Positions 1 to 30,215 are shown, numbered from the stretch's first letter. The stretch: DNA of 64,000 nucleotides from an uncultured Verrucomicrobiae bacterium (GCA_963788655.1 CAWBHS010000081.1:64001-128000), one strand, 5' to 3'. Notes: generated by a model not told the origin, from the sequence alone. Numbers and translations are program-made.

Positions 1-3000
1 GGGAATGGCCGCCAGGATGCCACTGATATTGCTGATGCTCACCACTTGGTTATTGACCGTGCTATAACGATCGCCAATCAACAGGTCAATCCCGGCGTGG
101 CCGTTCAAAAGGTCGTTGCCATCGCCACCAATCAACAGATCGTTGCCCGAGCCGCCGTACAATTCGTCGTCGCCATCGCCGCCATCAAGGATGTCATCAT
201 CCCGACTGCCGCGGAGAATGTCGCGACCCGCACCCCCGATCAAATAGTCAATGCCGGCACCACCTTCGATGGTGTCGTTGCCGGCGCCGCCTTCGACATA
301 GTCATTACCTTTGCCCGCATCGATGGTGTCGTCACCCTCGTCGCCGTAAAGCTCGTCGTCGAGCGCGCTACCGGTGATTGTATCCCGCCCCGCACCGCCG
401 TAAATCGTGATACCCGCCGCCCCGGCCACCAGCGTGTCGTTGCCGGCGTCACCGTAAATCGTCACATTTGTCGCCGCATCGCTGGTGCTGGCGGTAATGG
501 TATCGTTGCCATCATTGCCATGCACAATCGAGCCGGTGCCGTCGCTCAGGAAGATCGTGTCATTGCCCACGCCCCCGTCGATTTCCACGGGGCTCTGCAC
601 GCCGCGGAGGTCAATGTAATCATCGCCTTGACCACCATCGGCTACGATCTTCGCCACGTGCTCGTAGGTGTCCTTGTAGTCACCCCAGCGGACTTCCACA
701 GTCTCATCCCCCGCCGTGCCATCCACGTGCGCCACGATGAAGGTTTCGGAACCGTCGCTGGTGTCAATCGCGCCGCGAGCACCCGCGTTCGGCCCCATGT
801 TCAACGTCAGGCTCGCGCCTTCGGTGGCCAGTTCGGGCTCAGGGCAGGTGATGTCAAACGAGAACAAGGTGATCTCAGCGAAACGCCAGGTTTTATCGAT
901 GCTGAAGAAGAAGAGATCCACACTCAGGAACGCTTCGAGGAAGAGTCCCAGTTCGCCGTGGATGTTAAAGATGCAGCGTGGATCGGTCTGGGCCAGGGCA
1001 ATGATTTCGCTGACGCGCACCTTACCGTCGTCATCCACGTCGTTCAGGTCGAAATCGATGGTGGCAAAGATGCCGCCGCGCACACCGGCTTCGACGATGA
1101 GCAAGTCAATCGAAGCGCCGGCGAAGATTTCCCCGCTCAGGGAAAGTTCCGGCTGGTCGTTGCCATTGGCGTCGAAGTCCAGCACATAGAACCCGTCGAG
1201 CAGATCGAGCACATTCTTGTCTTCGGACGCGATGAATTTCTGAATGCCGAAGGTATCGTAGCCAAACCCAATGTTGATGGTGGCGCCAATCCGGCCGCCA
1301 AACTGGGCGTAGAGCGGCGGGTAGATGGGAATCTTCTGGATGTAGGTGAACTCGAACTTGAAGGTCGGCATCCGCCATTCGATCAGCCGAACGGTGCCGC
1401 CGGTGAAGAGATTAAACAGCTCGGCCGGATTCTTGAAGATCGGAATGCTGAAATTGTCGAGACTGTTAACATCGCCCACAAATCCCGAGGTCTTGCTCTT
1501 GTAAGTCGAACTGGCGCCGGGGCCCCCGGCATTGTTGATGGCGTTGTTAAGCTCATCCGCGGTCTGGGCGGCAACCTCCTGGATGACCTGGATTTTGTTG
1601 CGGTTGCCGGTGCCGTCATCATTGAGCGTGAAGGAACCGAACGGAATCAGGATGCTGCCTTCGCCGATGCCATCCAATTCGTTGATGATGTTGATGACCT
1701 GGATCACGCTGTCGATGAACTTGACCGTGGACGGTTCCAACAAGCCGAAGGCTGCGGCCAGATCGAGCAACGTGATGGTTTCGCCAGCCAGATCGGACAG
1801 CACCGGCAGCCGGGCGGTGACGATATCAACGATCGGCTGAAGCGGTTCGGTGACCTTGCGGATTTGCTCCAGGATCGGACCCATGAAATCGGAGATGAAT
1901 GTCCCGAGATCAAGAGCCACATTGGTGAAAGCCACCGTGGGCGCACCCGCGCCGTTCTGCAGGTCCCAGGCCCAGTCGAGATGGAACTCCGCCACTACCC
2001 GCGGGAAGGAGGTGTTGCCGCCGAAGCTGGCAGCAAGATCAAGGTTAATGTCCGCGACCGCCTCGAGGTTCGCGTCCACGATGTCCTTGAAGGTCGTTCC
2101 GCTGGAAGTCATTTCGGCGAAGGTCAACTTGCCATCGCCGTTGGGATCACGCAGGTCCACCACAAATTGACCGGTGAAATGGCTGGGATCATCCGGATTG
2201 TCCGCCACGTCCAATTGGAGGAAGGCCAGGGTGCCTTTGGCCGCCAAGCCCGGAATGGTCGCTTCCAGATAGACGCGCAACTCGGGGTCAGCCGCGGTGG
2301 CCGATGAATCGAAGAAGAAACCGTCTTCCTTATTCAAGCCAAAGCCGAACTTGAGGTCAAAGCCCAACGCGAGGATCACGTTGCCTTCGACCGCCAGCCC
2401 GAAGCCCGGCACGCCAATGTCGAAATCAATGGGATTGGCAGAAGTATCCACCAGCGCCATGGACTTGGCCAGCCGCAGATTGACCACGAGTCCGGTATCG
2501 CAATCAAGGGTTACATCCAGTTGCTGGTAACCGAGCGACGGATCCAGGGCGTTGCTGGTAGCCGGATCCACCAGGATGTCCAGACCGTCCGGACCGAGCG
2601 TGTTCCAGAAGGCCTGCTTAATGGCGTTCTCGATGGCGGCAGTAGCGCTGCCGGCGGAATTGACCGCGTCGCGCAGATCGCGCAACAGACCGCTGCGGAA
2701 GTCACTGATGAAATTGGCGGCGCCGGCAAAGCCATTGCCAATCAGCGGCAACGAGGTGGAGTAAGCGACGTCTTCCAAACCGTCCTGAATGGTGCCGAGT
2801 AAGCTGTCGAGACCGTCAAGCAACACCCCCGCATGCTGGTCAATGATGTCGCAAACGCCCACGTCCTCGAACAGGCTGCTGATATCGGGCGCGATGAGAA
2901 TCAGCTTGGAAACCGTTACCGTGCCGGAGCCGTTGTTCGAGCCGCTGGGATCGTCATCAAGGAAGGAAACGGTCCAGTCACCACCACCGCCCAGGGCTTC

Positions 3001-6000
3001 CACCGCACTCTTGATCGAGGTGGCGGTGGAGGAACCGCTGTTGATTTGGATGGTCAGCGTGTTGTTGGCAAAGGCGGCATTGGCTGAGCTACCCACGCTG
3101 CCGTTCTGCTCGAATACGACTTTGAAGTTATCGGAGTCGCCGGCAACGTTGATGATTTCCAGATTGTTCAGCCCGCCCGGAATCCGCACGTCGGCCACGC
3201 CCATGTCTGCCTGGGTATCAACGAAAAGTCGCACCAAGTCGGGAATGTCGATAACGAGGTAGTTATCCGGGTAACCGTCGCCGTTTCCATCCGTCTCGTT
3301 ACCCAACGCGATTTCACTGGGACCAATTTTCGTGAAGACCGGCAGCACCGCGGAAACGCCGCCTTCCATGTGCAGGTCAATGTTGTCGAAATCAAACCAG
3401 TTTTCGGAGAAATAGTGGCGGCCATCGCCATTGTTGTCCCGCAGGCCCAACCGGAACAGGGCGCCTTTGTCACCGTCGCCGGCATCTGTCTCCGGATTGC
3501 CGTCCTGATCAATCGTCACACTGCCGTCGTGAACTACGATGCCCACAATGGCGCCCACCGCCGCACTGAACTCGATGTTGGAACCGAGCACCTTGGCCGT
3601 CAGCACCACACCGGTCGAGTCATAGAAAAACGGACGAGCCGTACTCGGATTGGTGAGGTCCAAGCCGAAGTCGAGCGTCAAAGCCGCACTGGCGCTAACC
3701 GTCAATTGCGCTTCGCCTTCTACCTGAATAAACGTAGTGACCGCATCGAGAAAATCGGCAATGCCGGAATCTTGTCCCGCCAGTTGCTTGACCAGTTTGT
3801 TCAAGTCGAGTTGCAGCGGGAACGTGTTGGCGTACGCGGTTGTGAAATCGAACGCAAATTTGAGCGAGGTCGTGGTAAACGTCCCGTCCCCGGTGTTACT
3901 GCCAAGCGTATTGTCATTGGTCACCTTGGTCGCCGTCCAAGGGTGGCCGGAAAGACCATTGATGGCAGTGATGACGGTGTTCGTGGTGGTGGTGCTGCCG
4001 TTGATCTCGATCTTCAGAATCTTATTGGTATCGTCCCAGGTAACCGTGGCGTTGTCGCCGGTGATCGTGGGGCTGCCGACGATCTGAATGTTCGTGGCGT
4101 TGAAGTCTTCCGCATCGGCCAGGTTGGTGTTGCTGATAATGAAGCCATTGTTCTCGCCGTCCGGATTGATCGTAGTGGTCGAGGCTGCGGAATTATTGAC
4201 GCCGCCGGTGGTGGTCAGGACTGTGGAGGCAATGCCGCCGTCGTCCAGCGAAATAGTCAGGATGTCAGGATTGAGATTGAACAGTTGCTCGATCTGCGTC
4301 TCCAGGTCATCGATCATGCTCTGCAACGACTGCGAGTTGGAATGGGCGGCGGCATCGATGAGATCGGCGAACTTGGACGCATAATCGATCATGTCATTGA
4401 TGCTGATATCAATGATCGGCAGGCGTTCATCGAGGAAGCTGAAGGCGCTCAATTGGCCGAGGTTGTCCGCGATGACCTTCAACGCCTGGATGATTTGAGC
4501 AAAGCTGATGTTCTGGAAATTATTCAGGTTCCCGAAGTCCGGATAGGTTAGGAAAATGCCGGTGTTCGTGCCGTCATAGGGATCCGAATTGTAGTCCAGA
4601 TGATTGATGTCCGGAATCCAGAGAGATACTTCCGGGTTGCTGCCCAGCGGGAACGAGAAGCCGAGGCCGCCAACGGAGATGTTGGGCAGGCGGGCCAGGA
4701 AACTGCCTTCGAAATTGGGACCCTCGATGAAGTTGCCGAGATTGGCGCTCTCAATGCCGTTCATCAGGTCGGCAATGTAGAACCGCGAGTCGCCGGTGGT
4801 TTGGTCAGCCAATCCGATACTGACGCTGATCGGGGCCGGCGTGGTGCCGTCATAGTCCAACGTGCCCAAACTGCCACCAGTGGTGGAGATTTCCACGAAG
4901 CCGAACCGCAGCGAACCGTTGATCGGCGTGGTGGTGGTGACTTCCAGCGAACCGGTCATTTGAACGTCCTCGACAAACAAGCCTTTGACGGTCGATTTCG
5001 CGGTAGTCTGAAAATAACTGGTGCCACCAATCTCCAGCGCCTCGGCGCCGAAGCCCAATTCGGTGGCGAAAATGTCGTCCTGCTCGGAGCGGATGGTGAG
5101 CTTGTTGATCAATCCCAGTTGATTGTCGAGGTTGCCATCGCCGTTCAGGTCTTCCACCCGGTCCAGCACGCCATCGCCATCCAGATCCTCCCCGGTGTCC
5201 AAGCGACCGTTGCCGTTGGTGTCTTCGTTCACCGTACCGAGCATGCCGTCGCCATCGTAGTCCTCATTGATCACGGAGATGGCCAGCCCGGTGCCAGCTT
5301 TTTGCGCGTAAAGCAACTGGTCAATGGCCGTGCTGTTGTAAGTGTTTTCTTTGAAGACTCGGTTCAGGTCCTTCGCCAAATCTACGAGGTTGTTGTTTGG
5401 CGTGAGATCCATCGGATCGGTGCCGTCCGTATAGGACTTGGGTAGCGTCAGGGCCACGGGCGTCAGGGCATTGTCAAAGAAGACTTCAAAGTGGGCATCT
5501 TCACTGATACGCCCGTTGGCCGGGGCCGGAATCAGGCTCGACGAGATGACGCGCGGCACTTCGCCGGCGCCGAGGTCAAAGCCCAAAGTGAACTGGAAGC
5601 TGACGGTGGCGGCAATGTTGAGTTCTCCACTCAAATCAGCACCAGCGATCGAGCCCAAGTCGCCACCGAAATCAAAGGGAAGCGTTGTCGAGTAGGTGGC
5701 GCCCTTATCCACCATGTAGGTGTAAACCTGCTGGGCTTCGTTATAAACCACCGACAGGCCAAGCAAATTGCCCAATTCCTCGAAGAACCCCGGCGTGTCG
5801 TAACGCTCGGTCACGATGCCCACCTGGTCCACCGTAGTATCGTCCGCATCGCCCGGTCCAAAGCCCAGCGCGTTGAATTCGGTATTGCCGGTAACCAGGC
5901 TCAACGTGGTATCGGTGGCGATCAGCGTCGGGGTCAGCGCCAGGACAAACAGGTCGTCATCCGGATTGGTCGTGTCACGTTCATTGATGCGCGCCACCAC

Positions 6001-9000
6001 ACTTCCGGCCAAGCCGGCGGTCATCAACGCGGTGTTGAACCGGGTGACGAGATCATTCCAGTCGCCATAGGCGCCGCTGACCGACACCGGCACCGGTGGA
6101 TCATCGCCGATTTTGAGTTGGAAGTCCGCGCTGCTCAGCGTGCCACTGCTGGTCGCGGTGAGACTGCGCGACTGCAACTCCACGCTGATCATGTTGCTGT
6201 AAATCTCGTCCAGGAACAGTTGTGACCAGTCCAGGAAATCGCCGACTGTCGAGCCACCGGTGAAGGGGATTTCGACGTTGAACACGTCGGCGCCCTTGAA
6301 AATGTCCATCCAGTTGAGCAGTTGCCGGAGCATCCCCACGAACTCGAACGGACCGGGAGCGGCAAAGTCGTCAAAGGACAAGCCGGTGGTGATGTTGCCG
6401 CTCGCATCAATCGAGAGCAGCAAAGAATTGTCGCCTTGGTTGCGGAATTCAACCGTACCGCTGCCGGTATCGACTTCCACCGTGAAGTTAAACGGCAAGG
6501 CCACCGAACCAATGTGCAGGTAGCCGTTGACGTAAATGCGCAGGTATTCGGTTTCGGTCAGATTGATGACGGTCGAACCGCTGGGGGTCGTCACCGTGGT
6601 GTTCACCGCGGCAGTGGTGGTATTCACTTCGAGGCTAATGTCGCCGCTCATACCCACCAATCCGACTTCAAACTCGACATCCGCTACCCCAGCCAGTCCT
6701 CCGTTGGAAATGACAAACGCGCCCGTGCCGTTGTTGAATGAGGCAACGGTCAGCGAACTCACCTTCAAATCGAACGTCAAATCCTCCGCTGCCACTTTGA
6801 AGGTGTTTGGATCGGCATCCGATTTCTCGAACCGGAACACACCGCTCAAGACGACAAATCCGGCCAGATCAATGTCCGCCGCACCAGCCACGGCAAGGTA
6901 ATCGTGATAGTAGGCGCCGGTAAATTCGATGGTCACGTCGTCTGCCGCATCGTCCGAGATGCTGACCGACAGCGGCCCCACATCCGCGCCCGTGCCATTG
7001 AATTCAATTCGCAACTCAGTCGCCGTGACGCTGATGCCCGTGGCGCCGCTCAGGCTGGCGGAATTCACCGTGACCACTCCGGCCACGCCGGCGGGGTAAA
7101 TCACCAAAGCTCCGGTGCCGCCGCTGACATCCAAACTCAGCACCCCAGCCGACAGCGTGCTGCTCAATCCGGCAACGCCGACGGTGATGTAATCCGGGTC
7201 CGGATCGGCATCCACCAAGGTCAGAACAATGGAATCCATCATGAAGGACTGCATCTGTCCCCCAATGTTGATGTCGATGCCAAACGGCGATCCAGGATCG
7301 TAACTCAGGCGATTGAACGGACCAGCAGGCAGGTCCAGTTGTTCGAGCAACTCATCGACCAGCGGCAAGGCCATGGTTTCCAGGCCATCGCCACCCGTCA
7401 GCGGCGCGGGACTGGTCGTGCCCGAACCGGGTCCCGGACCGGCGCCCACTTCCTCGTCAATGGGACTACCAGTGTTGTTGAACGACCAACTGAACGGCTG
7501 CGTGAAACTATTGTTAAAGGCTGAAACCGTGACATCAATGGATCCCTGACCAGCCATGCCCAGATCCGTGAACACGAACAGCGCCGTTCCGTTATTCGCG
7601 GTCAACAGGCTGGTGCCAAAGTCGAAGGCCACATTGCCGGCCCGGACGACTACCAATTGCGTGCCGCCGGTGCTCTCCCGCTGTTCGAAACTGAAATCGC
7701 CCGTAATGCTCACGCCAAACACGTCGAGCGTCACGCCGGTGCCTTGCACTTGGAGATACGGACCCGCCGGCACATCAAGGTGAATAGTGCTGCCGCCGAC
7801 ATCGACCATTTCGTCCACCGCATCCTCCGTGTCGTTAATGCGCACGGTAAACGAGCCGGAAAGAGATACGCCCGTCACATTGAGGGTCACGTCGGCCGAA
7901 GCCTGACCCGCAATGCCATCGCTGGTAATGATGAAGGCGCCCGCAACGTTGCTGATATTCAAGAGGTCGTTGGCAAGCGTACCGAGATCGAATTGGACGT
8001 TGCTGGCCGCCACGGTGACGACCTCCAAGCCGCCAGGACTGGTCGTTTTGCTCTCGAACACGAAATCGCCGGTCAACCCAATCCCGAGAACTGTCAACTG
8101 CGCTCCCGTGGCTTCCACTCGCAGGTACGGGCCGGCCGGCAGCGTTGGAATGCTCACCGACATACCGTTTACGTCCACCGTGCGCGCGGAAAAGATGGTG
8201 TTGGTGTCATTGAGCCGAACATGGAAGGTGCCGGTCAGGTTGAGCGCGGAGACATTCAACGCCACGGTCGCGGTGGTCGAACCGGCAACGCCTGCATCGG
8301 TGAAAACAAACGCGCCTGAACCATTGGTAACGGTCAGCAGTGCCGACGCGCCTTCGTCGAAAGTGAACTGCAAGTTGGCCACGCCCAGCAGAAATTCTTC
8401 GTCGCCGTTGGCGGGATTCGCATCGGTGTCGTTGGGTTCGAACACAAAATCGCCCGTTAAAGTCGCATTGGGCGTGGTCAAGACGATGCTGGCATTGCCG
8501 GAAAGACGGTAATACGGGCCGGCGGGCAAACTCACCGTTTCGCCGTCAATTGTCGAAACCGCTGTCGGTGAGGTGTTGAAGGCCAAGTTCAAGGTGGTGC
8601 CCGAAATATCGATGTTCGGCAGGTCCGGACCGGCGGTGATGGTCAAAGTGGCGGTTCCAGCCAGTTCATCGCCGAGAATGAGGAATTTGCCGCTGCCATT
8701 CTCCACCCGGAGGATGCGCGTGGAACTGCCGCCCACACCCAAGGTGGCTTCATACACCACGTCTTCCGCGAGGACGACGGTTTCAGTTGCCGTCTTCTTG
8801 AGCGTAAACACGCCTTCGAGCGTTTGGCCCAGGATTTCCATTGAGCCATCCACTTCAATCGTTAGATCCGGGTCGGTGCCGCTGAACAAATCGTCGGACT
8901 GGATGCGAACCGTGTGCGTTCCAGTGTAATTCACTACGAAGCCGGTCAACGCGCCGTCCAATACGAAGGAGGCATCCACCGTGCCGGCGTGAGTGAGGTT

Positions 9001-10596
9001 GAAAGCATCGCCGACATTGATGGTGCCGCTGGCGATGTCCGTAAGTGTTGATCGGGTAATTCGCCCGCTGGTGAGGACACTATCATCCGGGGTCGCCGTC
9101 ACCGAGGCATCAAAGGCCACCGACCAACTTGTAACGTCCAGGTTCAGCGGGGCGCCCGGCGGCGTGAGGTCGAAGGCAAACCCGCCCGTCCCGCTGGCGT
9201 CCACCGTGGCCCGAGCAGTCAGGTCTTGAATCTCGACGTAAGCGTCGGCGTCGTAGCCCAAGGTAAATTGAAATTCCAAGGTGCCCTTAATGTCCACCAT
9301 CGGGCTGGGATCAAACGCCGCATCCAAGACTGCGCCGGCGACATCGCTGAGCGCTTGGTTGAGGTGGGTCTGGGTCAGTTGCAGGTTGATGTCCCAGGAA
9401 AAAGGATCGGAGGCGTTCGTGCCATAATGGCCCAGGACACCGAGGATGGTAATTTCGAAACCAGCGACGGTCGTCCCGTCCCAACTTTCGATTTCACTGG
9501 TGACCTGTGATTGGTTCGGTAACAGAGCCAGAAGCGAGTTCAGTTGACCGCGAATGGCATCGTTGATTCCCTGGCCGGCATCGGCCCAAGCGCCAATCGT
9601 CGAGCCGATCAGTGGCAGGTCTTCAGCCAGTTCGCCGATCCCGTCCAAGCCATTGGCAATCTGCTGCAATTTGACCAACCCGTCTTGCAATGCCGTCTCT
9701 GCGGTCGGGACAATCGTGTGGGTGGAGACAACTTGAAGGGTTAGATCATTGGCGTTATAGACCGGAACAAAAGCCAATTCCGGATGGCCAGGGATACTGG
9801 TAGTGCCACGCCAATTGGCAAATTCACCGGTGCGTGAGCCCCAAGTGAAAATAACAAAAGTATCTCCGGCGGAAAGTGTTGGGCTGCCAATGACTTGAAT
9901 TTGAAGAGTGCCGTCAAGTTCGGCCAGACCGCTAATAACAAATTGATCGTGTCCCGTCGGGTCAATCCCGGGACCGTCCGTTCCTCCAATGCGAATCGTA
10001 GTAGTTTCACCAAGCTCCTGGCTGAAGGTCGTCAGATTTGTGACCGTAATGCCAACCGGGGCGCCTTGAGTTTCCAGAGCTGCTTCCAAGAGAGGGGAGG
10101 CAGACTCAAGCAGTCCGTCAGCAGGAGGTCCGTTGGCGCTGCGTAACGTCTGGGTCAATTGACCCGCCATGGAATCGGAAACGGGATTGAAATCGGGTTT
10201 GATCGTCGGCGGCAGTTCGTCCGCCTCGAACGGTTCGCTTGGCGACTGTTCGGTCTGGTTTTCAGTCGCTTCGTGTTCCGCATTTACCTTTTGCTCGAAT
10301 GTTCCAGGCTGTGACTCATTGTCACTCTCTGGTGCGGACGAGGATTCGCTGGAAGCAGGAGAGGAATCGGAAGAAACATCTTCAAAGATGTTCCCCAAAC
10401 TAGAGGCCGGATCGTAGTCAAGTTGCTCCTCATCAGCGTCAGAATTGGCAGGAGATTGCTCAGTCGTTTCGACGGGATCAAGGAGTTGGTCGGCCAGAAT
10501 GGCACCGGCACATGCGCCGGCAACGTCTGCGGAAAGCATGATTCGCGGCTCCAGAGCCTCGAGTTCGAATCGTCGTTTTGAGGTTTCGTGCTTCAC
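1..10596 (-). CDS. Giant LEPR-XLL-domain secreted protein with RTX (hemolysin-type Ca-binding) repeats, >3,500 aa, 3' end outside window
   Basis: GTG at 10596 gives MKHETSKRRFELEALEPRIMLSADVAG. No minus-strand ORF in the track ends in this frame, so it has no stop down to position 1. The long + strand ORFs at 46, 3370, 4600, 5491 etc. share its codon register (antisense shadows). GGxGxD repeats near 70-640. Confidence 0.93.
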   Translation of the reverse strand, partial: MKHETSKRRFELEALEPRIMLSADVAGACAGAILADQLLDPVETTEQSPANSDADEEQLDYDPASSLGNIFEDVSSDSSPASSESSSAPESDNESQPGTFEQKVNAEHEATENQTEQSPSEPFEADELPPTIKPDFNPVSDSMAGQLTQTLRSANGPPADGLLESASPLLEAALETQGAPVGITVTNLTTFSQELGETTTIRIGGTDGPGIDPTGHDQFVISGLAELDGTLQIQVIGSPTLSAGDTFVIFTWGSRTGEFANWRGTTSIPGHPELAFVPVYNANDLTLQVVSTHTIVPTAETALQDGLVKLQQIANGLDGIGELAEDLPLIGSTIGAWADAGQGINDAIRGQLNSLLALLPNQSQVTSEIESWDGTTVAGFEITILGVLGHYGTNASDPFSWDINLQLTQTHLNQALSDVAGAVLDAAFDPSPMVDIKGTLEFQFTLGYDADAYVEIQDLTARATVDASGTGGFAFDLTPPGAPLNLDVTSWSVAFDASVTATPDDSVLTSGRITRSTLTDIASGTINVGDAFNLTHAGTVDASFVLDGALTGFVVNYTGTHTVRIQSDDLFSGTDPDLTIEVDGSMEILGQTLEGVFTLKKTATETVVLAEDVVYEATLGVGGSSTRILRVENGSGKFLILGDELAGTATLTITAGPDLPNIDISGTTLNLAFNTSPTAVSTIDGETVSLPAGPYYRLSGNASIVLTTPNATLTGDFVFEPNDTDANPANGDEEFLLGVANLQFTFDEGASALLTVTNGSGAFVFTDAGVAGSTTATVALNVSALNLTGTFHVRLNDTNTIFSARTVDVNGMSVSIPTLPAGPYLRVEATGAQLTVLGIGLTGDFVFESKTTSPGGLEVVTVAASNVQFDLGTLANDLLNISNVAGAFIITSDGIAGQASADVTLNVTGVSLSGSFTVRINDTEDAVDEMVDVGGSTIHLDVPAGPYLQVQGTGVTLDVFGVSITGDFSFEQRESTGGTQLVVVRAGNVAFDFGTSLLTANNGTALFVFTDLGMAGQGSIDVTVSAFNNSFTQPFSWSFNNTGSPIDEEVGAGPGPGSGTTSPAPLTGGDGLETMALPLVDELLEQLDLPAGPFNRLSYDPGSPFGIDINIGGQMQSFMMDSIVLTLVDADPDPDYITVGVAGLSSTLSAGVLSLDVSGGTGALVIYPAGVAGVVTVNSASLSGATGISVTATELRIEFNGTGADVGPLSVSISDDAADDVTIEFTGAYYHDYLAVAGAADIDLAGFVVLSGVFRFEKSDADPNTFKVAAEDLTFDLKVSSLTVASFNNGTGAFVISNGGLAGVADVEFEVGLVGMSGDISLEVNTTTAAVNTTVTTPSGSTVINLTETEYLRIYVNGYLHIGSVALPFNFTVEVDTGSGTVEFRNQGDNSLLLSIDASGNITTGLSFDDFAAPGPFEFVGMLRQLLNWMDIFKGADVFNVEIPFTGGSTVGDFLDWSQLFLDEIYSNMISVELQSRSLTATSSGTLSSADFQLKIGDDPPVPVSVSGAYGDWNDLVTRFNTALMTAGLAGSVVARINERDTTNPDDDLFVLALTPTLIATDTTLSLVTGNTEFNALGFGPGDADDTTVDQVGIVTERYDTPGFFEELGNLLGLSVVYNEAQQVYTYMVDKGATYSTTLPFDFGGDLGSIAGADLSGELNIAATVSFQFTLGFDLGAGEVPRVISSSLIPAPANGRISEDAHFEVFFDNALTPVALTLPKSYTDGTDPMDLTPNNNLVDLAKDLNRVFKENTYNSTAIDQLLYAQKAGTGLAISVINEDYDGDGMLGTVNEDTNGNGRLDTGEDLDGDGVLDRVEDLNGDGNLDNQLGLINKLTIRSEQDDIFATELGFGAEALEIGGTSYFQTTAKSTVKGLFVEDVQMTGSLEVTTTTPINGSLRFGFVEISTTGGSLGTLDYDGTTPAPISVSIGLADQTTGDSRFYIADLMNGIESANLGNFIEGPNFEGSFLARLPNISVGGLGFSFPLGSNPEVSLWIPDINHLDYNSDPYDGTNTGIFLTYPDFGNLNNFQNISFAQIIQALKVIADNLGQLSAFSFLDERLPIIDISINDMIDYASKFADLIDAAAHSNSQSLQSMIDDLETQIEQLFNLNPDILTISLDDGGIASTVLTTTGGVNNSAASTTTINPDGENNGFIISNTNLADAEDFNATNIQIVGSPTITGDNATVTWDDTNKILKIEINGSTTTTNTVITAINGLSGHPWTATKVTNDNTLGSNTGDGTFTTTSLKFAFDFTTAYANTFPLQLDLNKLVKQLAGQDSGIADFLDAVTTFIQVEGEAQLTVSASAALTLDFGLDLTNPSTARPFFYDSTGVVLTAKVLGSNIEFSAAVGAIVGIVVHDGSVTIDQDGNPETDAGDGDKGALFRLGLRDNNGDGRHYFSENWFDFDNIDLHMEGGVSAVLPVFTKIGPSEIALGNETDGNGDGYPDNYLVIDIPDLVRLFVDTQADMGVADVRIPGGLNNLEIINVAGDSDNFKVVFEQNGSVGSSANAAFANNTLTIQINSGSSTATSIKSAVEALGGGGDWTVSFLDDDPSGSNNGSGTVTVSKLILIAPDISSLFEDVGVCDIIDQHAGVLLDGLDSLLGTIQDGLEDVAYSTSLPLIGNGFAGAANFISDFRSGLLRDLRDAVNSAGSATAAIENAIKQAFWNTLGPDGLDILVDPATSNALDPSLGYQQLDVTLDCDTGLVVNLRLAKSMALVDTSANPIDFDIGVPGFGLAVEGNVILALGFDLKFGFGLNKEDGFFFDSSATAADPELRVYLEATIPGLAAKGTLAFLQLDVADNPDDPSHFTGQFVVDLRDPNGDGKLTFAEMTSSGTTFKDIVDANLEAVADINLDLAASFGGNTSFPRVVAEFHLDWAWDLQNGAGAPTVAFTNVALDLGTFISDFMGPILEQIRKVTEPLQPIVDIVTARLPVLSDLAGETITLLDLAAAFGLLEPSTVKFIDSVIQVINIINELDGIGEGSILIPFGSFTLNDDGTGNRNKIQVIQEVAAQTADELNNAINNAGGPGASSTYKSKTSGFVGDVNSLDNFSIPIFKNPAELFNLFTGGTVRLIEWRMPTFKFEFTYIQKIPIYPPLYAQFGGRIGATINIGFGYDTFGIQKFIASEDKNVLDLLDGFYVLDFDANGNDQPELSLSGEIFAGASIDLLIVEAGVRGGIFATIDFDLNDVDDDGKVRVSEIIALAQTDPRCIFNIHGELGLFLEAFLSVDLFFFSIDKTWRFAEITLFSFDITCPEPELATEGASLTLNMGPNAGARGAIDTSDGSETFIVAHVDGTAGDETVEVRWGDYKDTYEHVAKIVADGGQGDDYIDLRGVQSPVEIDGGVGNDTIFLSDGTGSIVHGNDGNDTITASTSDAATNVTIYGDAGNDTLVAGAAGITIYGGAGRDTITGSALDDELYGDEGDDTIDAGKGNDYVEGGAGNDTIEGGAGIDYLIGGAGRDILRGSRDDDILDGGDGDDELYGGSGNDLLIGGDGNDLLNGHAGIDLLIGDRYSTVNNQVVSISNISGILAAIP
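70..640 (-). repeat. RTX nonapeptide repeat block inside the giant protein
   Basis: Translation reads GGQGDDYI, GGVGNDTI, GDAGNDTL, GGAGRDTI, GDEGDDTI, GGAGNDTI, GGAGIDYL, GGDGDDEL, GGSGNDLL, GGDGNDL. Confidence 0.9.
5115..5275 (-). repeat. Tandem DxDGDG-type Ca-binding loops inside the giant protein
   Basis: NEDYDGDGMLG, NEDTNGNGRLD, GEDLDGDGVLD, VEDLNGDGNLD (four copies). Confidence 0.8.
7680..8530 (-). repeat. About 125-130-aa tandem beta-rich modules inside the giant protein
   Basis: PAGPYYRLSG..LTGDFVFEP, PAGPYLRVEATG..LTGDFVFES and PAGPYLQVQGTG..ITGDFSFEQ spaced roughly 365-390 nt apart. Confidence 0.75.
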
Positions 10597-10943: not shown

Positions 10944-12557
10944 TCACCGTTTCCGCCCCTCCGCCCGCCAGACGTAAAACCGAAAATGCGTGAGCGCGCG
11001 CTTGCGGGCAATGACCACAAAAACAATGTCCACGGCAAGCGCCAAGGCGCCGGCAATGAGCGGCGCAATCCAAATCCCCCACTTGCCGAAGGCGACCATG
11101 AAGAAGAAGATTCCCTGTGAAAAGCTGAGCGCAAACCAGGGGAGCACTTTGACGAAAGCAATGGTTTTGAGCAATGCGACGCTTGGGCTTTTCGAGGTCA
11201 ACCCCATCCAGATGCCGAACCATCCCACCGCCAGCAGTCCGACGACGAATTTGGCCACGCCCGCGACCAAGGAGACGAGTTGCATCATCTGGTAATCCGG
11301 TTGGTTGGGCATGCTGGAGGAAACGCCGGACGTGCCGACAACCGCGACGATACTGACAAATACCTGCAAGGCCAGGAATAACAGCCCGGGCATTAAGAAC
11401 AAGTCCAACAACATCCGCCAGTGGCCCCGCACAATCTGCCGGGGAGTCAAAGGCGTCGCCAGCAACAGTTCCATCATGCCGTTGTGCCGCGCATCCACCA
11501 GGAAGCGGCTGGACTGCGACGCAAACCACAACGTGAAAATCACCCCCGCCAAAAGAATGACCCCACTGCTGATTTGCATCAGGCCGAGCCCGCCCTTGCT
11601 CTCCCACACTGTTAAGAAGATGACCGCCGCCGCCCCGTACATGACCGCGCGCAATCCCCACGCCAGCCAGCGGTCCCGCCCTGCAAGCCACAGCACGGGA
11701 TTTCGGTCCAGCAATTTTCGTCGCCGTAGCGCGCGTTTGCTCGGCGCGGTTGTGGGCGACTGGCGCCGACGGAAACGGAATCGTGACCCGACGGCTTTTT
11801 CCTGCCAGTTGCGCGGCGCCACTCGGCAGGCCAATGCCAGGAAACTCCAGCCGATAATATGGATCAATCCCAAGCTGGGCCAGAACTCGGCGGATCGGTC
11901 GTTGCCGGCCTGGAGGAAGGAACAGAGCGAACTCACCAGACTAAAACGGGGCACAAACAGACTTTGATCCCCGCCCGCAATGGCCCAATCGACCACCCAG
12001 GGTAACAATAGAAATCCCAGCCCCGCCAGCAAGGTAGCACTCATGGCCTTCTGCGAATCACGGCTGAGCGACGAAATGCCAACCCCCAGGGCTAGTGAAA
12101 AAAACAACGTGTTGCACCACACCAGCATCAACCGCCAAAACTCGCTGCCGGTCACGCCCCCCACCAGGAAGACCAGCCCCATGATGGGAAACACGGCCAG
12201 TACGCCATAGACGGCCCGCAGCGACGTGGCCAGCAACTTCCCCAACACCACGTCGTAACCCCGCAAATCGGTGAGGAACAACAAGCCCAGCGTGCCTTGG
12301 CGTTTTTCCTCACTGAGACAGTCCGAAGTCAAAAACACACCCGCCAGACTTACCGCCACAAAACCAAGCCATTTGAGAATGCTGAAGAGGATGGAACCCA
12401 GTTGCGAAAGCCACATACCCTGTTGCAGTCCGGCGATAATCAAAACGCCAGCAGTGATCAGCGCAGCGAGCAATGCCGCCCCTACACGGGTCCAGTGGGT
12501 TACGGTCTTCCGTGCCGCCACCCGCAATTCCCGATCCACGATGGGGAGAAACGTCAT
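10944..12557 (-). CDS. ABC-2 type transporter permease (multi-TM)
   Basis: MTFLPIVDRELRVAARK start; two copies of the E..GTL.LL..T.L-like motif (SEEKRQGTLGLLFLTDL, ARHNGMMELLLATPL); many hydrophobic helices. No ATPase gene adjacent. Confidence 0.8.
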   Translation of the reverse strand: MTFLPIVDRELRVAARKTVTHWTRVGAALLAALITAGVLIIAGLQQGMWLSQLGSILFSILKWLGFVAVSLAGVFLTSDCLSEEKRQGTLGLLFLTDLRGYDVVLGKLLATSLRAVYGVLAVFPIMGLVFLVGGVTGSEFWRLMLVWCNTLFFSLALGVGISSLSRDSQKAMSATLLAGLGFLLLPWVVDWAIAGGDQSLFVPRFSLVSSLCSFLQAGNDRSAEFWPSLGLIHIIGWSFLALACRVAPRNWQEKAVGSRFRFRRRQSPTTAPSKRALRRRKLLDRNPVLWLAGRDRWLAWGLRAVMYGAAAVIFLTVWESKGGLGLMQISSGVILLAGVIFTLWFASQSSRFLVDARHNGMMELLLATPLTPRQIVRGHWRMLLDLFLMPGLLFLALQVFVSIVAVVGTSGVSSSMPNQPDYQMMQLVSLVAGVAKFVVGLLAVGWFGIWMGLTSKSPSVALLKTIAFVKVLPWFALSFSQGIFFFMVAFGKWGIWIAPLIAGALALAVDIVFVVIARKRALTHFRFYVWRAEGRKR

Positions 12558-15837: not shown

Positions 15838-16258
15838 TGTAATCCATTACTAAAGCCTGTTCGAATGCCGCCATTTCGCAGACACAGCGTCAAGCGAGCA
15901 AGCGCGCATCCAATAACATGCCGATCCGACGACTAATCCGGTTACTTCCGCCATCGAACGATCCACCGGGCCTTGGATGGGCACATGAGCCCGCTGGACC
16001 AATCCGAACCTGTTCCGATGCACATTTGCCTCGTCATTGCCGGCGAACGCACACCAATCCAGGGTTCTAACGTATGCGATGCTAACAAGAATGGTGAACC
16101 ACACAAATAAAAAACACACCTTATCCGTATTTTCACAGACAGTAATGTCCCATAGCAGGGGGGCAGGGAAATTTCGCTTGGTCTTGAGTCAGTTCACCAA
16201 CGTGTGCCGGCACCCCATTGGTAAGCGTTGCGCACTCCAGTCCAAGGTCTGCACTGTC

Positions 16259-16336
16259 TCCCATCCGCAATCCTGCCGCAATCCACTTCACCGTCATCGC
16301 CGTTTCCACGCGTAAACGCCCCGCGACCACAACTTC
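16259..16336 (-). mobile_element. Remnant of a RAYT/IS200-like (Y1) transposase C-terminus
   Basis: EVVVAGRLRVETAMTVKWIAAGLRMG resembles the KV.LARRLR.ETTMTLKWIA.RL.MG tail of verrucomicrobial Y1 transposases (recalled from memory, not searched). Confidence 0.55.
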
Positions 16337-16561
16337 TCCGGTACGAACTCTGGGCAACGTCCAGCAGACTGGACAAGGGCTCCCTGGTCGGCTTTAAACG
16401 AGGCCGTCCGAAGTTGCAGAGTCATGATCCAACGCCCTGACACAAGCAGCACGGCGTTCGAGGCGACCAATGCCCGGGCAAGCATTATCGAGAACCGACC
16501 GGGACAGACGCACGCGGGTTTGCCTTGCTTGCGCTGCCAAGTTGCTTCACAAAAGAGCAAA

Positions 16562-19171: not shown

Positions 19172-19198
19172 CCACAAGCCGCGCCGACATCTCCACGC

Positions 19199-19921: not shown

Positions 19922-19928
19922 CCGCAAC

Positions 19929-19945: not shown

Positions 19946-20015
19946 TGCGCAAGACCACTTAGATTGGCGCCGGCACAACTGATGAGTTCACCAACTAAAC
20001 CCACCCTAATCTGCT

Positions 20016-26059: not shown

Positions 26060-28057
26060 TCACGTTCCCCCCGCGTCCCCGCCGGCAAAGGAAAGGGCCT
26101 CCTCCAGCCACGTGTCGGTGCGCAACACAGTCTTGCGTTGTTTGAAGGTGTGATGTTGGGAGTTGTGTTGCGCCAACACGAAGGCGGCTTGGGCAATTCT
26201 CCGGCGGCCGGGCACGCCGTTGCGAAGGCTGCGCCGCAAGGCATGTTGCAACGATCGCGGCAGGTAGCGGCGGATGAGTTCGTCCTCGGCGCTGACAAAT
26301 GCTTGCGCGCTGCCGGGATCTCCCTGCCGGGCAGAACGACCAAAGAGCTGCCGGTCCACCCGCCCGGACTCGTGGCGTTCGGTGGACAGCACGTGCAATC
26401 CGCCGTTGATCGCCACACCGGCGCCCAGTTTTATGTCCGTACCGCGTCCGGCCATGTTGGTGGCAATGGTGATGCATCCGGGTTCCCCGGCCAGGGCCAC
26501 GATGGCGGCTTCTTCCTGATGGCGCACCGCGTTGAGCAAGCGGAACTCCAGCTTCCGCTCGTGGAGCAAGGTGGCGAGCTTTTCACTGGCCGCCACACTG
26601 CGCGAGCCGACCAGGATTGGGCGACCGACGGTGTGCAGCCGTTCGATTTCCTCGACAATAGCCGTCCATTTGGAATCTTCATCCGCAAACACCCGGTCCG
26701 GCCAATGCTCGCGGATGCACGGCTTGTTGGTCGGGATGGCAACCACTGGGAGCTTGTAGATTTGCCAAAATTCCCCCGCCGCCTCGCGGGCCGTGCCCGA
26801 CATGCCGGCCAAGCGATGAAAGCACCGGAAGAACCGTTGAAAGCTGAGCCGGGCGATGGTTTCGGAGGGATTGGAAATGGTCAATTCTTCCTTGGCTTCG
26901 ATGGCCTGGTGTAAACCCTGACGCCAGGTGCGCTGGGGCATTTGCCGGCCGGTGAATTCATCGACGATGACGATCTTCTCGCTGTCCGCAATGATGTATT
27001 GCTTATCACGATGAAAGAATTCGCGCGCCACCAATGCCTGCCGGATTAATTCGTCCCGCCGGTCCCGGCCCTGCCAAAGCCCGGGCAACGACGCGCAAGC
27101 CGCCGCCACCTTTTCGCGCCCCGGCCGGGTCAATTCGATTTCCCGGTAACGTTGATTGAGCTGGTAGTCCGTTCCGGTTGCCAGGGAGTCCGCAATCTGT
27201 TGGGCGATGGTAACGGCTTGTTCGAGGTTCTCATTTTTCTGCGCCGCGGAGATGATGAGCGGCGTCACCGCTTCGTCCACCAATACGCTGTCCGCTTCGT
27301 CCACAATGGCGGTATATAGGCCCCGCATCACCAAGCCGTCGCGCACCGCCAATTGCGGACGTAGCAACTGACGGATCAATCGGCGTGACGGATGATTCAG
27401 CGTGCCGAGCCGCAACCGGTCGCGCAGAAAGTCCGCCAGCAACTCTTTACTGGTCACGTACGTGATGTCCGCCGCGTAACCCTTCTGGCGGTCTGGCGGC
27501 TCCATCGCACCAGTAACGCAGCCTTCGCGAACGCCGCAAAAGGTGTAGAGCGGCCGCATCCATTTCGCGTCACGCTGAACGAGGTAATCGTTCACCGTCA
27601 CGATGTGGCAGGGGCGCCGGGTCCATCCCGCCAGCACCGCCGCCAGACTGGCCGTCAGCGTCTTGCCTTCGCCGGTGGCCATTTCCGCCAGGTAACCTCG
27701 GTGCAACGCCAACGCCCCCATCAGTTGCACGACGAACGGCCGCAATCCCAGGAGCCGCGCGGCCGCTTCCCGAACGGCCGCCAGCGCCGGCACGACGCAA
27801 TCTTCAACATCTTTCCCGCCCCGACGGAATTGCGCGCGAAACTCCATGAGTTTCTCGTGCAATTGATGATTGGGCAGATCCTGCCAGTGGCCGGCATGCG
27901 CGTCGATGGTTTCGGCGAGGCGGCGCAGGTCCGTCAGAATGTGCGGGCGACGATGGTAATGTCCCGCCACGCTGTGGACCGCCGCGTCCAATCCCTTGAG
28001 CAAACGCGGCGGCGTGCGGTGACTAAAGCGGCGGAATTGCTGAGTGGGCGTGATCAC
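26060..28057 (-). CDS. Secondary SecA-like ATPase (SecA_DEAD + preprotein cross-link + helicase C; no wing/scaffold C-terminus), about 665 aa
   Basis: EMATGEGKT, VTVNDYL, DEADSVLVDEAVTPLIIS, VDEFTGR, GLHQAIEAKE, ATNMAGRGTDIKL, HESGRVDRQLFGRSARQGDPGS. Ends far short of canonical SecA. GTG start 7 nt after the M50 gene stop. Confidence 0.9.
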   Translation of the reverse strand: MITPTQQFRRFSHRTPPRLLKGLDAAVHSVAGHYHRRPHILTDLRRLAETIDAHAGHWQDLPNHQLHEKLMEFRAQFRRGGKDVEDCVVPALAAVREAAARLLGLRPFVVQLMGALALHRGYLAEMATGEGKTLTASLAAVLAGWTRRPCHIVTVNDYLVQRDAKWMRPLYTFCGVREGCVTGAMEPPDRQKGYAADITYVTSKELLADFLRDRLRLGTLNHPSRRLIRQLLRPQLAVRDGLVMRGLYTAIVDEADSVLVDEAVTPLIISAAQKNENLEQAVTIAQQIADSLATGTDYQLNQRYREIELTRPGREKVAAACASLPGLWQGRDRRDELIRQALVAREFFHRDKQYIIADSEKIVIVDEFTGRQMPQRTWRQGLHQAIEAKEELTISNPSETIARLSFQRFFRCFHRLAGMSGTAREAAGEFWQIYKLPVVAIPTNKPCIREHWPDRVFADEDSKWTAIVEEIERLHTVGRPILVGSRSVAASEKLATLLHERKLEFRLLNAVRHQEEAAIVALAGEPGCITIATNMAGRGTDIKLGAGVAINGGLHVLSTERHESGRVDRQLFGRSARQGDPGSAQAFVSAEDELIRRYLPRSLQHALRRSLRNGVPGRRRIAQAAFVLAQHNSQHHTFKQRKTVLRTDTWLEEALSFAGGDAGGT

Positions 28058-28064
28058 GCGGCGT

Positions 28065-30215
28065 TCACATTTGATACCGCTTTTGCAGAAGTTGGTACAG
28101 ACGACGCATCCAGCGAGGCAGCAGCGGCTCGGGATCGAGATCAAAACGAATCTTGCCGGCGCGTCCATGGACATAGGCGACTTCCGGATCCGTCGGCAAA
28201 TCGGCATGAACTTCAAAAAACGGCTCCGCCGCCTTCGACGGATCCTTCGGCGTGACGGCAACCTCGCCACCCGCGGCCCAGCCCAATGCGGGCGAGGGTA
28301 ATTGCTGTTTGCCGCCAGGAATGACTTCCCAACTTTTGGCGCGAATCATTTCTCCTGCCTGGCCGTACAACCGAATTTCCGCGCCATGAATGTGCCGGGC
28401 AAAAATGGCATCGACATCCGCCTGTTCGACCGTAGCCGTGAACTCAAACGTGGCCGGTTCAACCAACAACCCCAGAGGCGTGCCACGTTCCAACCGCCGT
28501 CCCAGGTAATCCTGAATGCCGGGCGCCACCCAGACGCCGGGCTGCCGAGCCCGAACTACCAAAGACGCGTGATCGGCTTTCAATTTGCGCAAACGCTGCG
28601 TCACGGTTTCCATCCGGCTTTGGAGCGGTTTCAGATTGGCGGTGGCCTCTTTCATGGCCTGACGGAGACGCGCTTCAATTTCCTGGTAACGTGCCTGCGC
28701 GTTGACCAAATCCAGTTCGAGCTCCGGATTGCTCAATTGCACGAGCGCATCATTCGGTCGCACGCGACTGCCTGGCTGGGCCAGCACGGTTTGGACGGTG
28801 CCCGCGACCTCATTCAATACCAACGACCGATCATGCGCCTGAAGAATGCCCGGCGCACGGAAATGGCTGGGAAAGGGAATGACCGCCAGCAATACCAGGA
28901 GCGCTGCCGCCAGGCCCACCGTGGCAGCCACGGCCCGCGGACGGTTCCGATCGAGACGGGGACTGGACGCGAGGTAATGGATGAACTTGCCAACCGGCAC
29001 AATCACCCAGGAGATCAGACAGACGACCGCCATGATGATGCCCAGAATAAAAAAACGGTCGGCGACCAGCAGCAAGATGCCGCCGAAGACAATCACCCGA
29101 TAAATCCCGCTGGCAATGCCGAAGACCACCAGCCAGACGGCCTCGCGGCGATTGTTCGCCGGGCTGTCCTCTTTCTTTAAACCAAACAACCAGCGTTCGG
29201 CATAAAAGCGCAGTTGCCGCATGGCGCGCTGGGAGAGGTTCGGGATTTCGAGCAGGTCGGACAAAATGTAGTAACCATCAAACCGCAGCAACGGATTGAC
29301 GTTGAACACGACCGTGGACACTGACGCGACAAACAACATGTTGTACGCCAGGCTGTGGATGGTGCCGGGCCCAGTGTTTGCCCAGACAAAAACCGCCAGC
29401 GCGGCCACGAACAACTCGACGATCATGCCCGCGCATCCGACCAGGATGCGTTTCCAGCGGCTGCGGAAGGCCCAACTTGAAGTGGCATCCACGTACGGCA
29501 CCGGCGTGAAGATCATGAACAGGATGCCCATGGTGTGAACTTCGCCGCCGAACCGACGGCAGAAAAAGGCATGGCCGAACTCGTGCAGCGTCTTGATGAT
29601 CACCAATCCCGCGTACAGCAGGAACAAGTTGTCCGGCGCCAGCACCGCCTGCGAATGTTCGCGCAGCGTGGAAAAATTGTCGGCTACAACCTTCAATCCC
29701 CACCCGACCACCACCAGCCAGATCAAGGCGCCAATCGGATTGAGCAGCTTGCCCACCAGCGGCATTGCGCGCACCAGAAACCGGTCGGGATCCAGCAGCG
29801 GGATGCGCATGAACATGATGTTCATCAATCGCGCCGCAGTTTCGCGTTGTTTGCGTTTCTTGTACCGGTCGAACAATTGGGCGCTGTCAGCGGCCAGATC
29901 GTATTGCAGCAGGTTGGCGAAATACAATTGGGACAACAACTGGATTACGGCTTCCTGGCCGGGGGCTTCATCGGGGAACCGGTTGAGGCACTGCTGCCAG
30001 GCCTCCTGCACCGTGCAGTCCGGCCGCAAGCGCGCGACGAACTCGTACGCCGCGGGCCGGAGCCGGAAGAACTGGTTGCTGAAGGGATTCTCCAGGACGA
30101 TCCACCGATCCCCTCGATAATTTTGGCGCCGCACCTTGATGCCAGGGCGCAGGTGAATGCGCTGGTTGGCAATGCGGTACCACGACTCACTAAAAGTTGG
30201 AAGACTTTCAGCCAT
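28065..30215 (-). CDS. PqqD/RRE-like + M50 (site-2) zinc metalloprotease + HlyD-type membrane-fusion protein
   Basis: HEFGH and NVNPLLRFDGYY M50 motifs within TM segments. N-terminal winged-helix-like region (WIVLENP..NQFFRL..TVQEAW..VIQLLSQL). C-terminal lipoyl halves (EVAGTVQTVLAQPGSRV; ARQPGVW) flanking a coiled coil. Confidence 0.88.
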   Translation of the reverse strand: MAESLPTFSESWYRIANQRIHLRPGIKVRRQNYRGDRWIVLENPFSNQFFRLRPAAYEFVARLRPDCTVQEAWQQCLNRFPDEAPGQEAVIQLLSQLYFANLLQYDLAADSAQLFDRYKKRKQRETAARLMNIMFMRIPLLDPDRFLVRAMPLVGKLLNPIGALIWLVVVGWGLKVVADNFSTLREHSQAVLAPDNLFLLYAGLVIIKTLHEFGHAFFCRRFGGEVHTMGILFMIFTPVPYVDATSSWAFRSRWKRILVGCAGMIVELFVAALAVFVWANTGPGTIHSLAYNMLFVASVSTVVFNVNPLLRFDGYYILSDLLEIPNLSQRAMRQLRFYAERWLFGLKKEDSPANNRREAVWLVVFGIASGIYRVIVFGGILLLVADRFFILGIIMAVVCLISWVIVPVGKFIHYLASSPRLDRNRPRAVAATVGLAAALLVLLAVIPFPSHFRAPGILQAHDRSLVLNEVAGTVQTVLAQPGSRVRPNDALVQLSNPELELDLVNAQARYQEIEARLRQAMKEATANLKPLQSRMETVTQRLRKLKADHASLVVRARQPGVWVAPGIQDYLGRRLERGTPLGLLVEPATFEFTATVEQADVDAIFARHIHGAEIRLYGQAGEMIRAKSWEVIPGGKQQLPSPALGWAAGGEVAVTPKDPSKAAEPFFEVHADLPTDPEVAYVHGRAGKIRFDLDPEPLLPRWMRRLYQLLQKRYQM

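Follow-up and report, generated by a model that had tools for sequence, protein, structure and literature searches.

Little is understood of the way in which bacteria export proteins that have 4,000 to more than 12,000 residues. In the Omnitrophota, giant proteins have been described that carry embedded SecA_DEAD and preprotein-binding domains, without scaffold and wing, and these domains were proposed to export them (bioRxiv preprint 10.1101/2023.11.21.568195); in the accessible portion of that text the terms M50, HlyD, TolC and LEPR do not occur. According to the accessible portion of a second study, a preprint of 2026, giant proteins of Chlorobium chlorochromatii carry an N-terminal LEPRxLL, are flanked by sapC and tolC, are said to be without known transport signals and are co-expressed with a recently acquired secA (10.64898/2026.03.19.712371). 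The same portion proposes a 'sap-like' type 1 system consisting of SapC, TolC and one HlyD; M50 does not occur in it, and LEPRxLL is not treated there as a signal. The LEPR-XLL motif is known as a curated domain, to which no function has been assigned and which receives passing mentions only in the searchable literature, and in the literature searched no description of an M50-HlyD/SecA-like operon was found. Here, we analysed a stretch of 64,000 nucleotides from an uncultured Verrucomicrobiae bacterium (GCA_963788655.1, CAWBHS010000081.1:64001-128000; in the following, the window). It encodes a giant protein that starts with LEPR-XLL and, at some distance, a module composed of an RRE-like/M50/HlyD fusion and a SecA-like ATPase. 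Our comparison of sequences from many genomes gives good support to a functional link between LEPR-XLL proteins and this module, as cargo and machine.

The open reading frame (ORF) of the giant protein begins with a GTG codon (10594-10596), five codons behind an in-frame stop. Its N-terminus reads MKHETSKRRFELEALEPRIMLSAD and, in a longer read, MKHETSKRRFELEALEPRIMLSADVAGACAGAILADQLLDPVETTEQSPANSDADEEQ; residues 10-24, FELEALEPRIMLSAD, are encoded at 10525-10569. The features of this ORF are the following.

1..10596, minus strand: giant ORF, putative cargo, at least 3532 aa, its C-terminal end beyond the window edge, where the frame is still open
10570..10596, minus strand: short basic N-terminus, residues 1-9 (MKHETSKRR), with K2, K7, R8 and R9
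10513..10569, minus strand: LEPR-XLL motif, proposed targeting leader, residues 10-28, FELEALEPRIMLSADVAGA
10174..10533, minus strand: acidic stretch behind the motif, poor in K and R, residues 22-141
76..441, minus strand: RTX calcium-binding repeats, residues 3386-3507, HemolysinCabind 81 bits

A first-pass annotation, made from the sequence of the window alone, had placed an LEPR-XLL motif at 10520..10596, preceded by a short basic N-terminus and followed by an acidic linker, and all three are present. The NCBIfam model NF012209 ('LEPR-8K', LEPR-XLL domain-containing protein) matches residues 10-28 with 31.3 bits (E 9.5e-8) when the first 200 aa are searched and with 26.7 bits on the whole ORF, against a curated cut-off of 17. 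The giant ORF, very large and with its motif at the extreme N-terminus, belongs to this family. The 120 residues behind the motif have a net charge of -27 (D+E 24%, K+R 2%). A six-frame regular-expression scan of the window returned three LE.R-type matches, and just one of them, that of the giant ORF, lies at an ORF start. Matches of the giant ORF to RTX family models stayed below their cut-offs. A word-indexed search with the 45-aa N-terminus gave 104 candidates, none at E<=10, and was uninformative because its scope was limited to proteins of 80-2000 aa. In the ESM Atlas, the first 200 aa had look-alikes of 0.82 at best, in a Planctomycetota-rich cluster, which is below the meaningful level.

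The same annotation had suggested that the motif might be a leader read by an RRE-M50 fusion about 17 kb away, with a spare motor in the window. Both genes are present.

28065..30215, minus strand: fusion of RRE-like, M50 (site-2 protease type) and HlyD-like parts (P0001), 716 aa
29826..30215, minus strand: RRE/PqqD-like N-terminal domain of the fusion, residues 1-130
29571..29585, minus strand: HEFGH zinc-binding motif of the M50 domain, residues 211-215
28068..28865, minus strand: HlyD-like periplasmic adaptor part of the fusion, residues 451-716
26060..28057 (listed as 26060..28270), minus strand: SecA-like ATPase, about 665 aa, directly downstream of the fusion

The fusion is a member of the M50 family by its score (Peptidase_M50, PF02163, 36.2 bits against a cut-off of 27.2), its HExxH and its aspartate motif. 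Among 25 diverse fusion homologues H211 and E212 are invariant and H215 is at least 90% conserved; N305, N307, P308, L309 and D313 of NVNPLLRFDGY are invariant, and so are W12, R51 and W73. A full HMMER scan found 13153 representatives of the family at E<=1e-3, of which 4541 reach E<=1e-30; among the best 150 of the 13153, a length of about 710-740 aa prevails. Relatives are also found on 17 Escherichia and 8 Citrobacter plasmid records; in five Escherichia records among the matches listed (H36-H40) the match covers query residues 130-665 at about 27% identity, without an RRE-like domain, and an Escherichia plasmid relative is annotated as an HlyD family adaptor.

The SecA-like gene has a probable GTG start at 28057, 8 nt past the fusion stop. 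Its product contains the DEAD motor, the preprotein cross-linking domain (SecA_PP_bind, 89 bits) and nucleotide-binding domain 2 (NBD2), and it matches solved Bacillus subtilis SecA chains over residues 16-604 of 778-841, so that the C-terminal third of SecA is missing. In SecA, the wing domain and the SecY-docking helices belong to this third. No SecA or SecA2 equivalog cut-off was reached (best 609 against 814), and we do not assign the protein to either of them.

The module is a conserved operon. We scanned for the fusion in one genome per species, which gave at least 600 candidate stretches, 541 of them confirmed, and kept the best 80 with up to 10 kb of flank. These 80 loci come from at least eight phyla and include Verrucomicrobiota, Planctomycetota, Desulfobacterota, Gamma- and Betaproteobacteria, Nitrospirota, Methylomirabilia, Rokuibacteriota, Myxococcota and an acidobacterial class. 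A SecA-like ORF is present in 66 of the 80; by a strict criterion it stands behind the fusion in 59 of the 71 loci with at least 600 nt of room, to which six loci with offset ORF calls can be added. Upstream of the fusion, ORF clustering and Pfam identified HlyD-type neighbours in 75/80 loci, namely a small adaptor (about 270 aa) and a GAF-HlyD protein (about 620 aa), and a TolC-like OEP gene occurs in 30/80. The apparatus is often accompanied by DUF3467 and, in Proteobacteria, by SapC. The DUF3467 gene (17/80 loci, e.g. 1455-1838 in L023) encodes about 100 aa and is located directly behind the giant gene and before GAF-HlyD; SapC (PF07277) was found in six proteobacterial loci (e.g. 4801-5544 in L021) and on an Alisedimentitalea plasmid (658-1455 in L091). 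DUF3467 was also considered as a SecB-like chaperone, an idea that we dropped: its AlphaFold2 (AF2) model has a pLDDT of 69.3, Foldseek gave no match at E<=0.001 and SecB was not among the matches listed. The searched literature held an unrelated mention of DUF3467 only. Adaptors and TolC-like proteins are thus conserved around the fusion, and no ABC exporter appeared among the ORF clusters found in at least five of the 80 loci, so that we do not class the operon as type 1 secretion.

Within these loci, a regular expression for the LE.R type matched 21 times near ORF starts, and 14 of the matches showed, by eye, the full pattern F-x-L-E-x-L-E-x-R-x-L-L-S-A-D. A hidden Markov model (HMM) built from these 14 sequences and that of the window detected, at 21.5 bits or more, 16 LEPR-type ORFs distributed over 15 of the 80 loci, two of these ORFs (L072, L011) from outside the seed; the next real match scored 5.8 bits and the best on reversed sequences 6.1. 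NF012209 confirmed 13 of the 16 and missed those of L039, L042 and L067, all Planctomycetota variants. Ten of the 13 confirmed ORFs, from nine loci (L002 with two, L004, L011, L028, L058, L070, L072, L077 and L079), start within 1.2 kb downstream of the SecA-like stop and on the same strand. The others lie upstream, in a Nitrospira locus (L031) on the same strand and ahead of DUF3467, and in L012 and L013 in divergent orientation. The probability that at least 10 of 13 are so placed by chance is about 2e-8 under a null of 0.1 per ORF, a value that is an assumption. Loci with LEPR-type neighbours belong to Verrucomicrobiota, Comamonadaceae, Vreelandella, another gammaproteobacterium, Nitrospira and Planctomycetota. 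In 13 further loci, ORFs that have 1200 aa or more and share the strand of the operon enter from the locus edge with their N-termini out of view; 11 of these edge ORFs were run against Pfam, of which seven showed RTX, Calx-beta, FG-GAP or PKD domains and four had no match. A large ORF behind the fusion in L060 starts without an LEPR-type motif; its start may be that of an RNA helicase, which it resembles.

Annotated plasmids served as an independent check. A tblastn search with P0001 gave matches on 65 plasmid records, with 80% or more of the query covered in 23, and we examined eight of the 13 best-ranked, all alphaproteobacterial. An LEPR-type giant gene (4,000 to 12,700 aa) lies directly upstream of the module on the same strand in all eight.

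Pontibrevibacter plasmid: giant gene, 10,603 aa
Thalassospira marina plasmid (L090): giant gene, 4,033 aa
Methylosinus plasmid: giant gene, 8,847 aa
Pseudosulfitobacter plasmid: giant gene, 12,737 aa
Mesorhizobium plasmid: giant gene, 10,518 aa
Alisedimentitalea plasmid NZ_CP123586.1 (L091): giant gene, 8,148 aa as annotated
Rhizobium johnstonii plasmid NZ_CP140822.1 (L095): giant gene, 10,051 aa as annotated
Pseudohalocynthiibacter plasmid: giant gene, about 11,600 codons, crossing the record origin

The order is giant gene, DUF3467, one or two HlyD-type adaptors, M50-HlyD fusion, usually a SecA-like gene and sometimes an adaptor with TolC. DUF3467 directly follows the giant gene in seven of the eight and is not annotated in the Alisedimentitalea record. 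The records call the fusion homologues 'PqqD family peptide modification chaperone' and the SecA-like proteins 'DEAD/DEAH box helicase', 'translocase', 'preprotein translocase subunit SecA', 'prepilin peptidase' or 'hypothetical protein'. The Pontibrevibacter and Thalassospira giants are independently annotated as 'LEPR-XLL domain-containing protein', and our HMM finds the motif in every one of the eight giants (12.9-29.0 bits; noise in those loci at most 5.6). In the Alisedimentitalea (L091, 1-478) and R. johnstonii (L095, 5535-5826) plasmids, the annotated start comes after the motif and is in frame with it; the leader of these two giants, which are named 'calcium-binding protein' and 'Ig-like domain-containing protein', is therefore hidden by the annotation.

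LEPR-type ORFs thus adjoin the module in Verrucomicrobiota, Planctomycetota, Nitrospirota and Alpha-, Beta- and Gammaproteobacteria. Because this adjacency recurs in a position-specific manner across unrelated phyla and replicons, a link of cargo and machine is much the best reading of the data, and chance as an explanation is effectively excluded. Of the first-pass proposal that the leader is read by the module, this comparison outside the window sustains the part that LEPR-XLL proteins and the module belong together; the reading of the leader itself is supported in part. The cargo is best explained as mostly giant surface proteins rich in RTX, Calx-beta or Ig domains, and the apparatus as a TolC-like channel, a small HlyD, the GAF-HlyD protein, the RRE-like/M50/HlyD fusion and the SecA-like ATPase.

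It could be argued that the module has another job, such as the export of small ribosomal peptides or regulated intramembrane proteolysis, that the giants leave by type 1 or Sec/Tat routes, and that adjacency reflects co-regulation or co-transfer. The curated models closest to the fusion are indeed proteases for ribosomally synthesised and post-translationally modified peptides (RiPPs), NF041824 and NF058609 (YydH/LiaK), both of which remain below cut-off, and the RR-F at the start of the motif faintly resembles a twin-arginine (Tat) signal. However, the plasmid operons are compact and their giant gene abuts or overlaps DUF3467 and the adaptors, the RR pair of the window (SKRRFELE) is not conserved in an alignment of 16 leaders, and the motif is too charged for a Sec hydrophobic core. 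We give this explanation very little weight. The reading of SKRRF as a Tat signal was rejected for this lack of conservation of RR; the invariant residues of the leaders are E, E, R and L.

LEPR-type leaders share a conserved basic/motif/acidic anatomy: of 21 LEPR-type proteins, 18 carry a net positive charge immediately before the motif and 20 a net negative charge in the up to 120 aa behind it (mean -13.8). In the 16-leader alignment, E13, E16, R18 and L21 are invariant and conservation stops after LLSAD(P); a conserved glycine pair, as expected of a double-glycine leader, was not seen in it. We consider it probable, from conservation and gene order, that LEPR-XLL is the N-terminal targeting signal of this export apparatus. 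Small LEPR-type ORFs of 264-467 aa occur as well. In L002, two LEPR-type ORFs stand in tandem behind the SecA-like gene (14318-15112 and 15301-21209); the first encodes 264 aa and is, unlike all others, strongly basic behind the motif (net +22); this first ORF might be a fragment or represent another kind of cargo.

The same anatomy might serve retention and release. By analogy with LapA/LapG/LapD, the protein would exit C-terminus first, the motif would remain anchored at the inner membrane while the acidic stretch spans the conduit, and cleavage by M50, perhaps gated by GAF, would free the adhesin. RTX repeats at the C-terminus of the window protein and in five of the 11 neighbouring giants tested would agree with this, as would the acidic spacer behind the motif in 20 of the 21 proteins and the protease and GAF sensor domains built into the adaptors. 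Against it, the conserved neighbours include no ABC exporter to drive export C-terminus first, SecA-type motors act from the N-terminal side, and the small LEPR-type ORFs exist. We therefore regard retention as improbable.

The proposed reader of the leader is the N-terminal domain of the fusion. The first-pass annotation had called it RRE-like, and the AF2 model of residues 1-130 (pLDDT 81.6) agrees: three strands (27-33, 36-43, 48-52) are followed by three helices (54-61, 69-79, 87-99), the beta3-alpha3 order of the RRE/PqqD winged-helix fold. The best Foldseek matches are mostly RRE-bearing RiPP enzymes at E 0.012-0.1, namely LynD, TruD, lasso-peptide B1 proteins bound to leaders, TbtB, MibB and ThcOx, and the stand-alone RREs 6jx3_B and 5v1v_A give target-normalised TM-scores of 0.68-0.69 (E 0.025-0.036). 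A search of the fusion sequence against solved structures found just a chance-level match (E 0.33). PF05402 (PqqD) is precomputed on three of 120 close homologues, among the matches listed. The closest curated model of the fusion is that of the daptide leader protease, NF041824 (178 bits against a cut-off of 300), which aligns through 364 of its 379 positions with residues 22-406. An RRE/PqqD-like fold of this domain is thus supported by the model. Some close homologues carry PF25973, PF25919 or PF00364, and TIGR01730 scores 34.2 on the window fusion, against a cut-off of 94.9. By the positive-inside rule, the basic linker behind the RRE-like domain and the basic loop before the last membrane helix would agree with an RRE in the cytoplasm and an HlyD part in the periplasm. 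Glutamates that are invariant in the leader would face R51, R30 and R34 of the RRE-like domain, which are invariant or nearly so; this complementarity is at most suggestive. We infer that the RRE domain binds the motif and that M50 cleaves it; as the first-pass annotation proposed, binding might be by beta-strand addition and cleavage might fall near MLS/AD.

Another component may read the motif instead, for instance the cross-linking domain of the SecA-like protein, DUF3467, the GAF domain or SapC, while the RRE-like domain does something else. SecA_PP_bind is retained in the SecA-like protein, and in canonical SecA the preprotein cross-linking domain binds signal peptides; DUF3467 follows the cargo gene directly in most of the plasmid operons and occurs in a number of the other loci. 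On the other hand, RRE domains fused to proteases are the leader readers of RiPP systems, the Thalassospira operon and six loci have no SecA-like gene nearby, and many loci have neither DUF3467 nor SapC. We regard a different reader as unlikely, though as the most probable of the alternatives. Both a different reader and retention keep the link between cargo and machine and alter its mechanism.

If the RRE-like domain is the reader, export might proceed as follows. The cytoplasmic RRE-like domain would capture the emerging leader, the SecA-like motor would feed the unfolded chain N-terminus first into the conduit of adaptors and TolC, and the M50 site would remove or release the leader. Outside, calcium-driven folding of the RTX repeats would stop back-sliding. 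An N-terminal signal would allow the export of a chain of 4,000-12,000 residues to begin before its translation ends. In its widest form, our proposal is that of a widespread, unrecognised secretion system dedicated to the export of some of the largest proteins of bacteria, guided by an N-terminal leader with LEPR-XLL as the signal and possibly co-translational, in which a SecA-like ATPase replaces the ABC transporter and works with an RRE/site-2-protease/adaptor fusion, a GAF-adaptor, a third adaptor and TolC. We put this forward tentatively, as a serious possibility; there is a substantial chance that it deserves the name of a new secretion system.

Several observations weigh against this reading. 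Elsewhere, C-terminal RTX repeats are the mark of C-terminus-first type 1 secretion and would fit another role of the N-terminus. All our sampling, of loci as well as plasmids, was conditional on the M50-HlyD fusion and never started from the LEPR-XLL side. A downstream LEPR ORF is seen in just 10 of the 51 loci with at least 1.5 kb behind the SecA-like gene, and most loci show no visible cargo within 10 kb. By tblastn, six of the 71 loci with room (L017, L030, L032, L036, L060 and L061) lack a SecA-like gene, and on the Thalassospira plasmid the fusion is directly followed by an adaptor and TolC, with no SecA-like gene nearby; the motor is either dispensable there or encoded elsewhere. The assignment of domains has its own weak points, in that the window fusion remains below the Pfam gathering score for PqqD (PF05402, 18.1 bits against 23.4) and below the cut-offs of the HlyD models (HlyD_D23 21 against 30, HlyD_3 18.5 against 22.2), and Foldseek gave no match to the RRE-like domain at E<=0.001, the RRE matches being mixed with GdmN and NO66.

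The arrangement in the window itself belongs to these points. As the first-pass annotation had noted, cargo and module are not adjacent: 15.5 kb separate the pair of fusion and SecA-like gene from the giant gene, filled by genes for an ABC-2 permease, a HAD hydrolase, an LptA-like protein, an LptB-like ABC ATPase, an HPr kinase, an SDR of the enoyl-ACP reductase (FabI-like) type, an MFS transporter and ApbE. With housekeeping genes in this gap, there is no positional link within the window. The fusion and the SecA-like gene are all that the window holds of the apparatus: tblastn with the TolC, small HlyD and GAF-HlyD proteins of L001 found nothing in its 64 kb at E<=1e-3, and no ABC exporter, adaptor gene or TolC-like gene adjoins the module. 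The link in the window thus rests on family membership and not on position.

Upstream of the window fusion, about 1 kb (30216-31196) is without a long ORF and is followed by a divergent gene; the corresponding region of L001 is 5579-9998. A rearrangement may have had its breakpoint in this ORF-poor stretch, and the missing parts may lie elsewhere in the genome. The gene of the ABC-2 type permease (10944-12557, minus strand, 537 aa) directly precedes the giant gene and has the same orientation; its Pfam matches are near or below the cut-offs, and we saw no equivalent next to LEPR-type genes elsewhere. For long ORFs of 1304, 961, 584, 459 and 436 aa, Pfam gave nothing at E<=0.001, and ORFs without Pfam match lie at 45082-48996, 49751-52636, 57386-59140 and 59839-62568 (all minus strand). 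At 63291-63998 on the plus strand, an ORF with Ig and PKD-like domains runs past the right edge. The regular-expression scan found no LEPR-type motif at its start; it may encode another large surface protein.

If the proposal is true, thousands of genes that now pass as 'PqqD family', 'peptidase M50', 'DEAD/DEAH box helicase' or 'translocase' would gain a function. The cargo set of each genome would become predictable from a motif of 20 residues, including giants whose motif is hidden, as in two of the eight plasmid records. Moreover, a route through a TolC conduit powered by a SecA-like protein would be directly testable in hosts that are cultivable and harmless, such as Vreelandella, Thalassospira and Rhizobium plasmids.

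Parts of the apparatus have counterparts in known systems. The SecA-like ATPase shares the DEAD motor, the preprotein cross-linking domain and NBD2 with canonical SecA and SecA2, but it misses their equivalog cut-offs, lacks the C-terminal third and is coupled to M50-HlyD instead of SecY2 or glycosylation genes. As far as the accessible text describes them, the Omnitrophota giants also tie a SecA-like motor without scaffold and wing to giant proteins, although there the motor is located inside the giant protein itself. The C. chlorochromatii system, as described in the accessible portion of its source, resembles ours in its LEPRxLL giants beside sapC and tolC, and SapC is a neighbour of the module in six proteobacterial loci and on one plasmid here.

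The M50 proteases that depend on an RRE for RiPP leaders (NF041824, daptide; NF058609, YydH/LiaK) share the N-terminal RRE-like domain and the M50 core with the fusion. In contrast to them, the fusion carries a C-terminal HlyD-like adaptor, has SecA-like and TolC neighbours and stands beside a giant gene in place of a short precursor peptide.

The LapA/LapG/LapD system also combines giant repetitive proteins, which bear C-terminal RTX repeats and an N-terminus of special function, with a protease of its own and a channel of the TolC type. The retention module of Lap folds into a domain of some 100 residues and is cut by a periplasmic cysteine protease, whereas here we find a motif of 20 residues, an intramembrane metalloprotease and no ABC transporter in the operon.

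With the type 1 secretion of leader-bearing bacteriocins by peptidase-containing ABC transporters (PCAT), for example of colicin V by CvaA/CvaB/TolC, the proposed apparatus would share a leader at the N-terminus of the cargo and a protease within the inner-membrane exporter that recognises and probably removes this leader, in concert with an HlyD-type adaptor and TolC. The apparatus described here has no ABC transporter, no C39 peptidase and no double-glycine site in the leader; instead, recognition by the RRE-like domain, cleavage by M50 and energy from the SecA-like protein are proposed, with three HlyD-type proteins and a cargo of thousands of residues. By analogy, it would work most like a peptidase-coupled type 1 exporter, yet without the ABC transporter that defines one.

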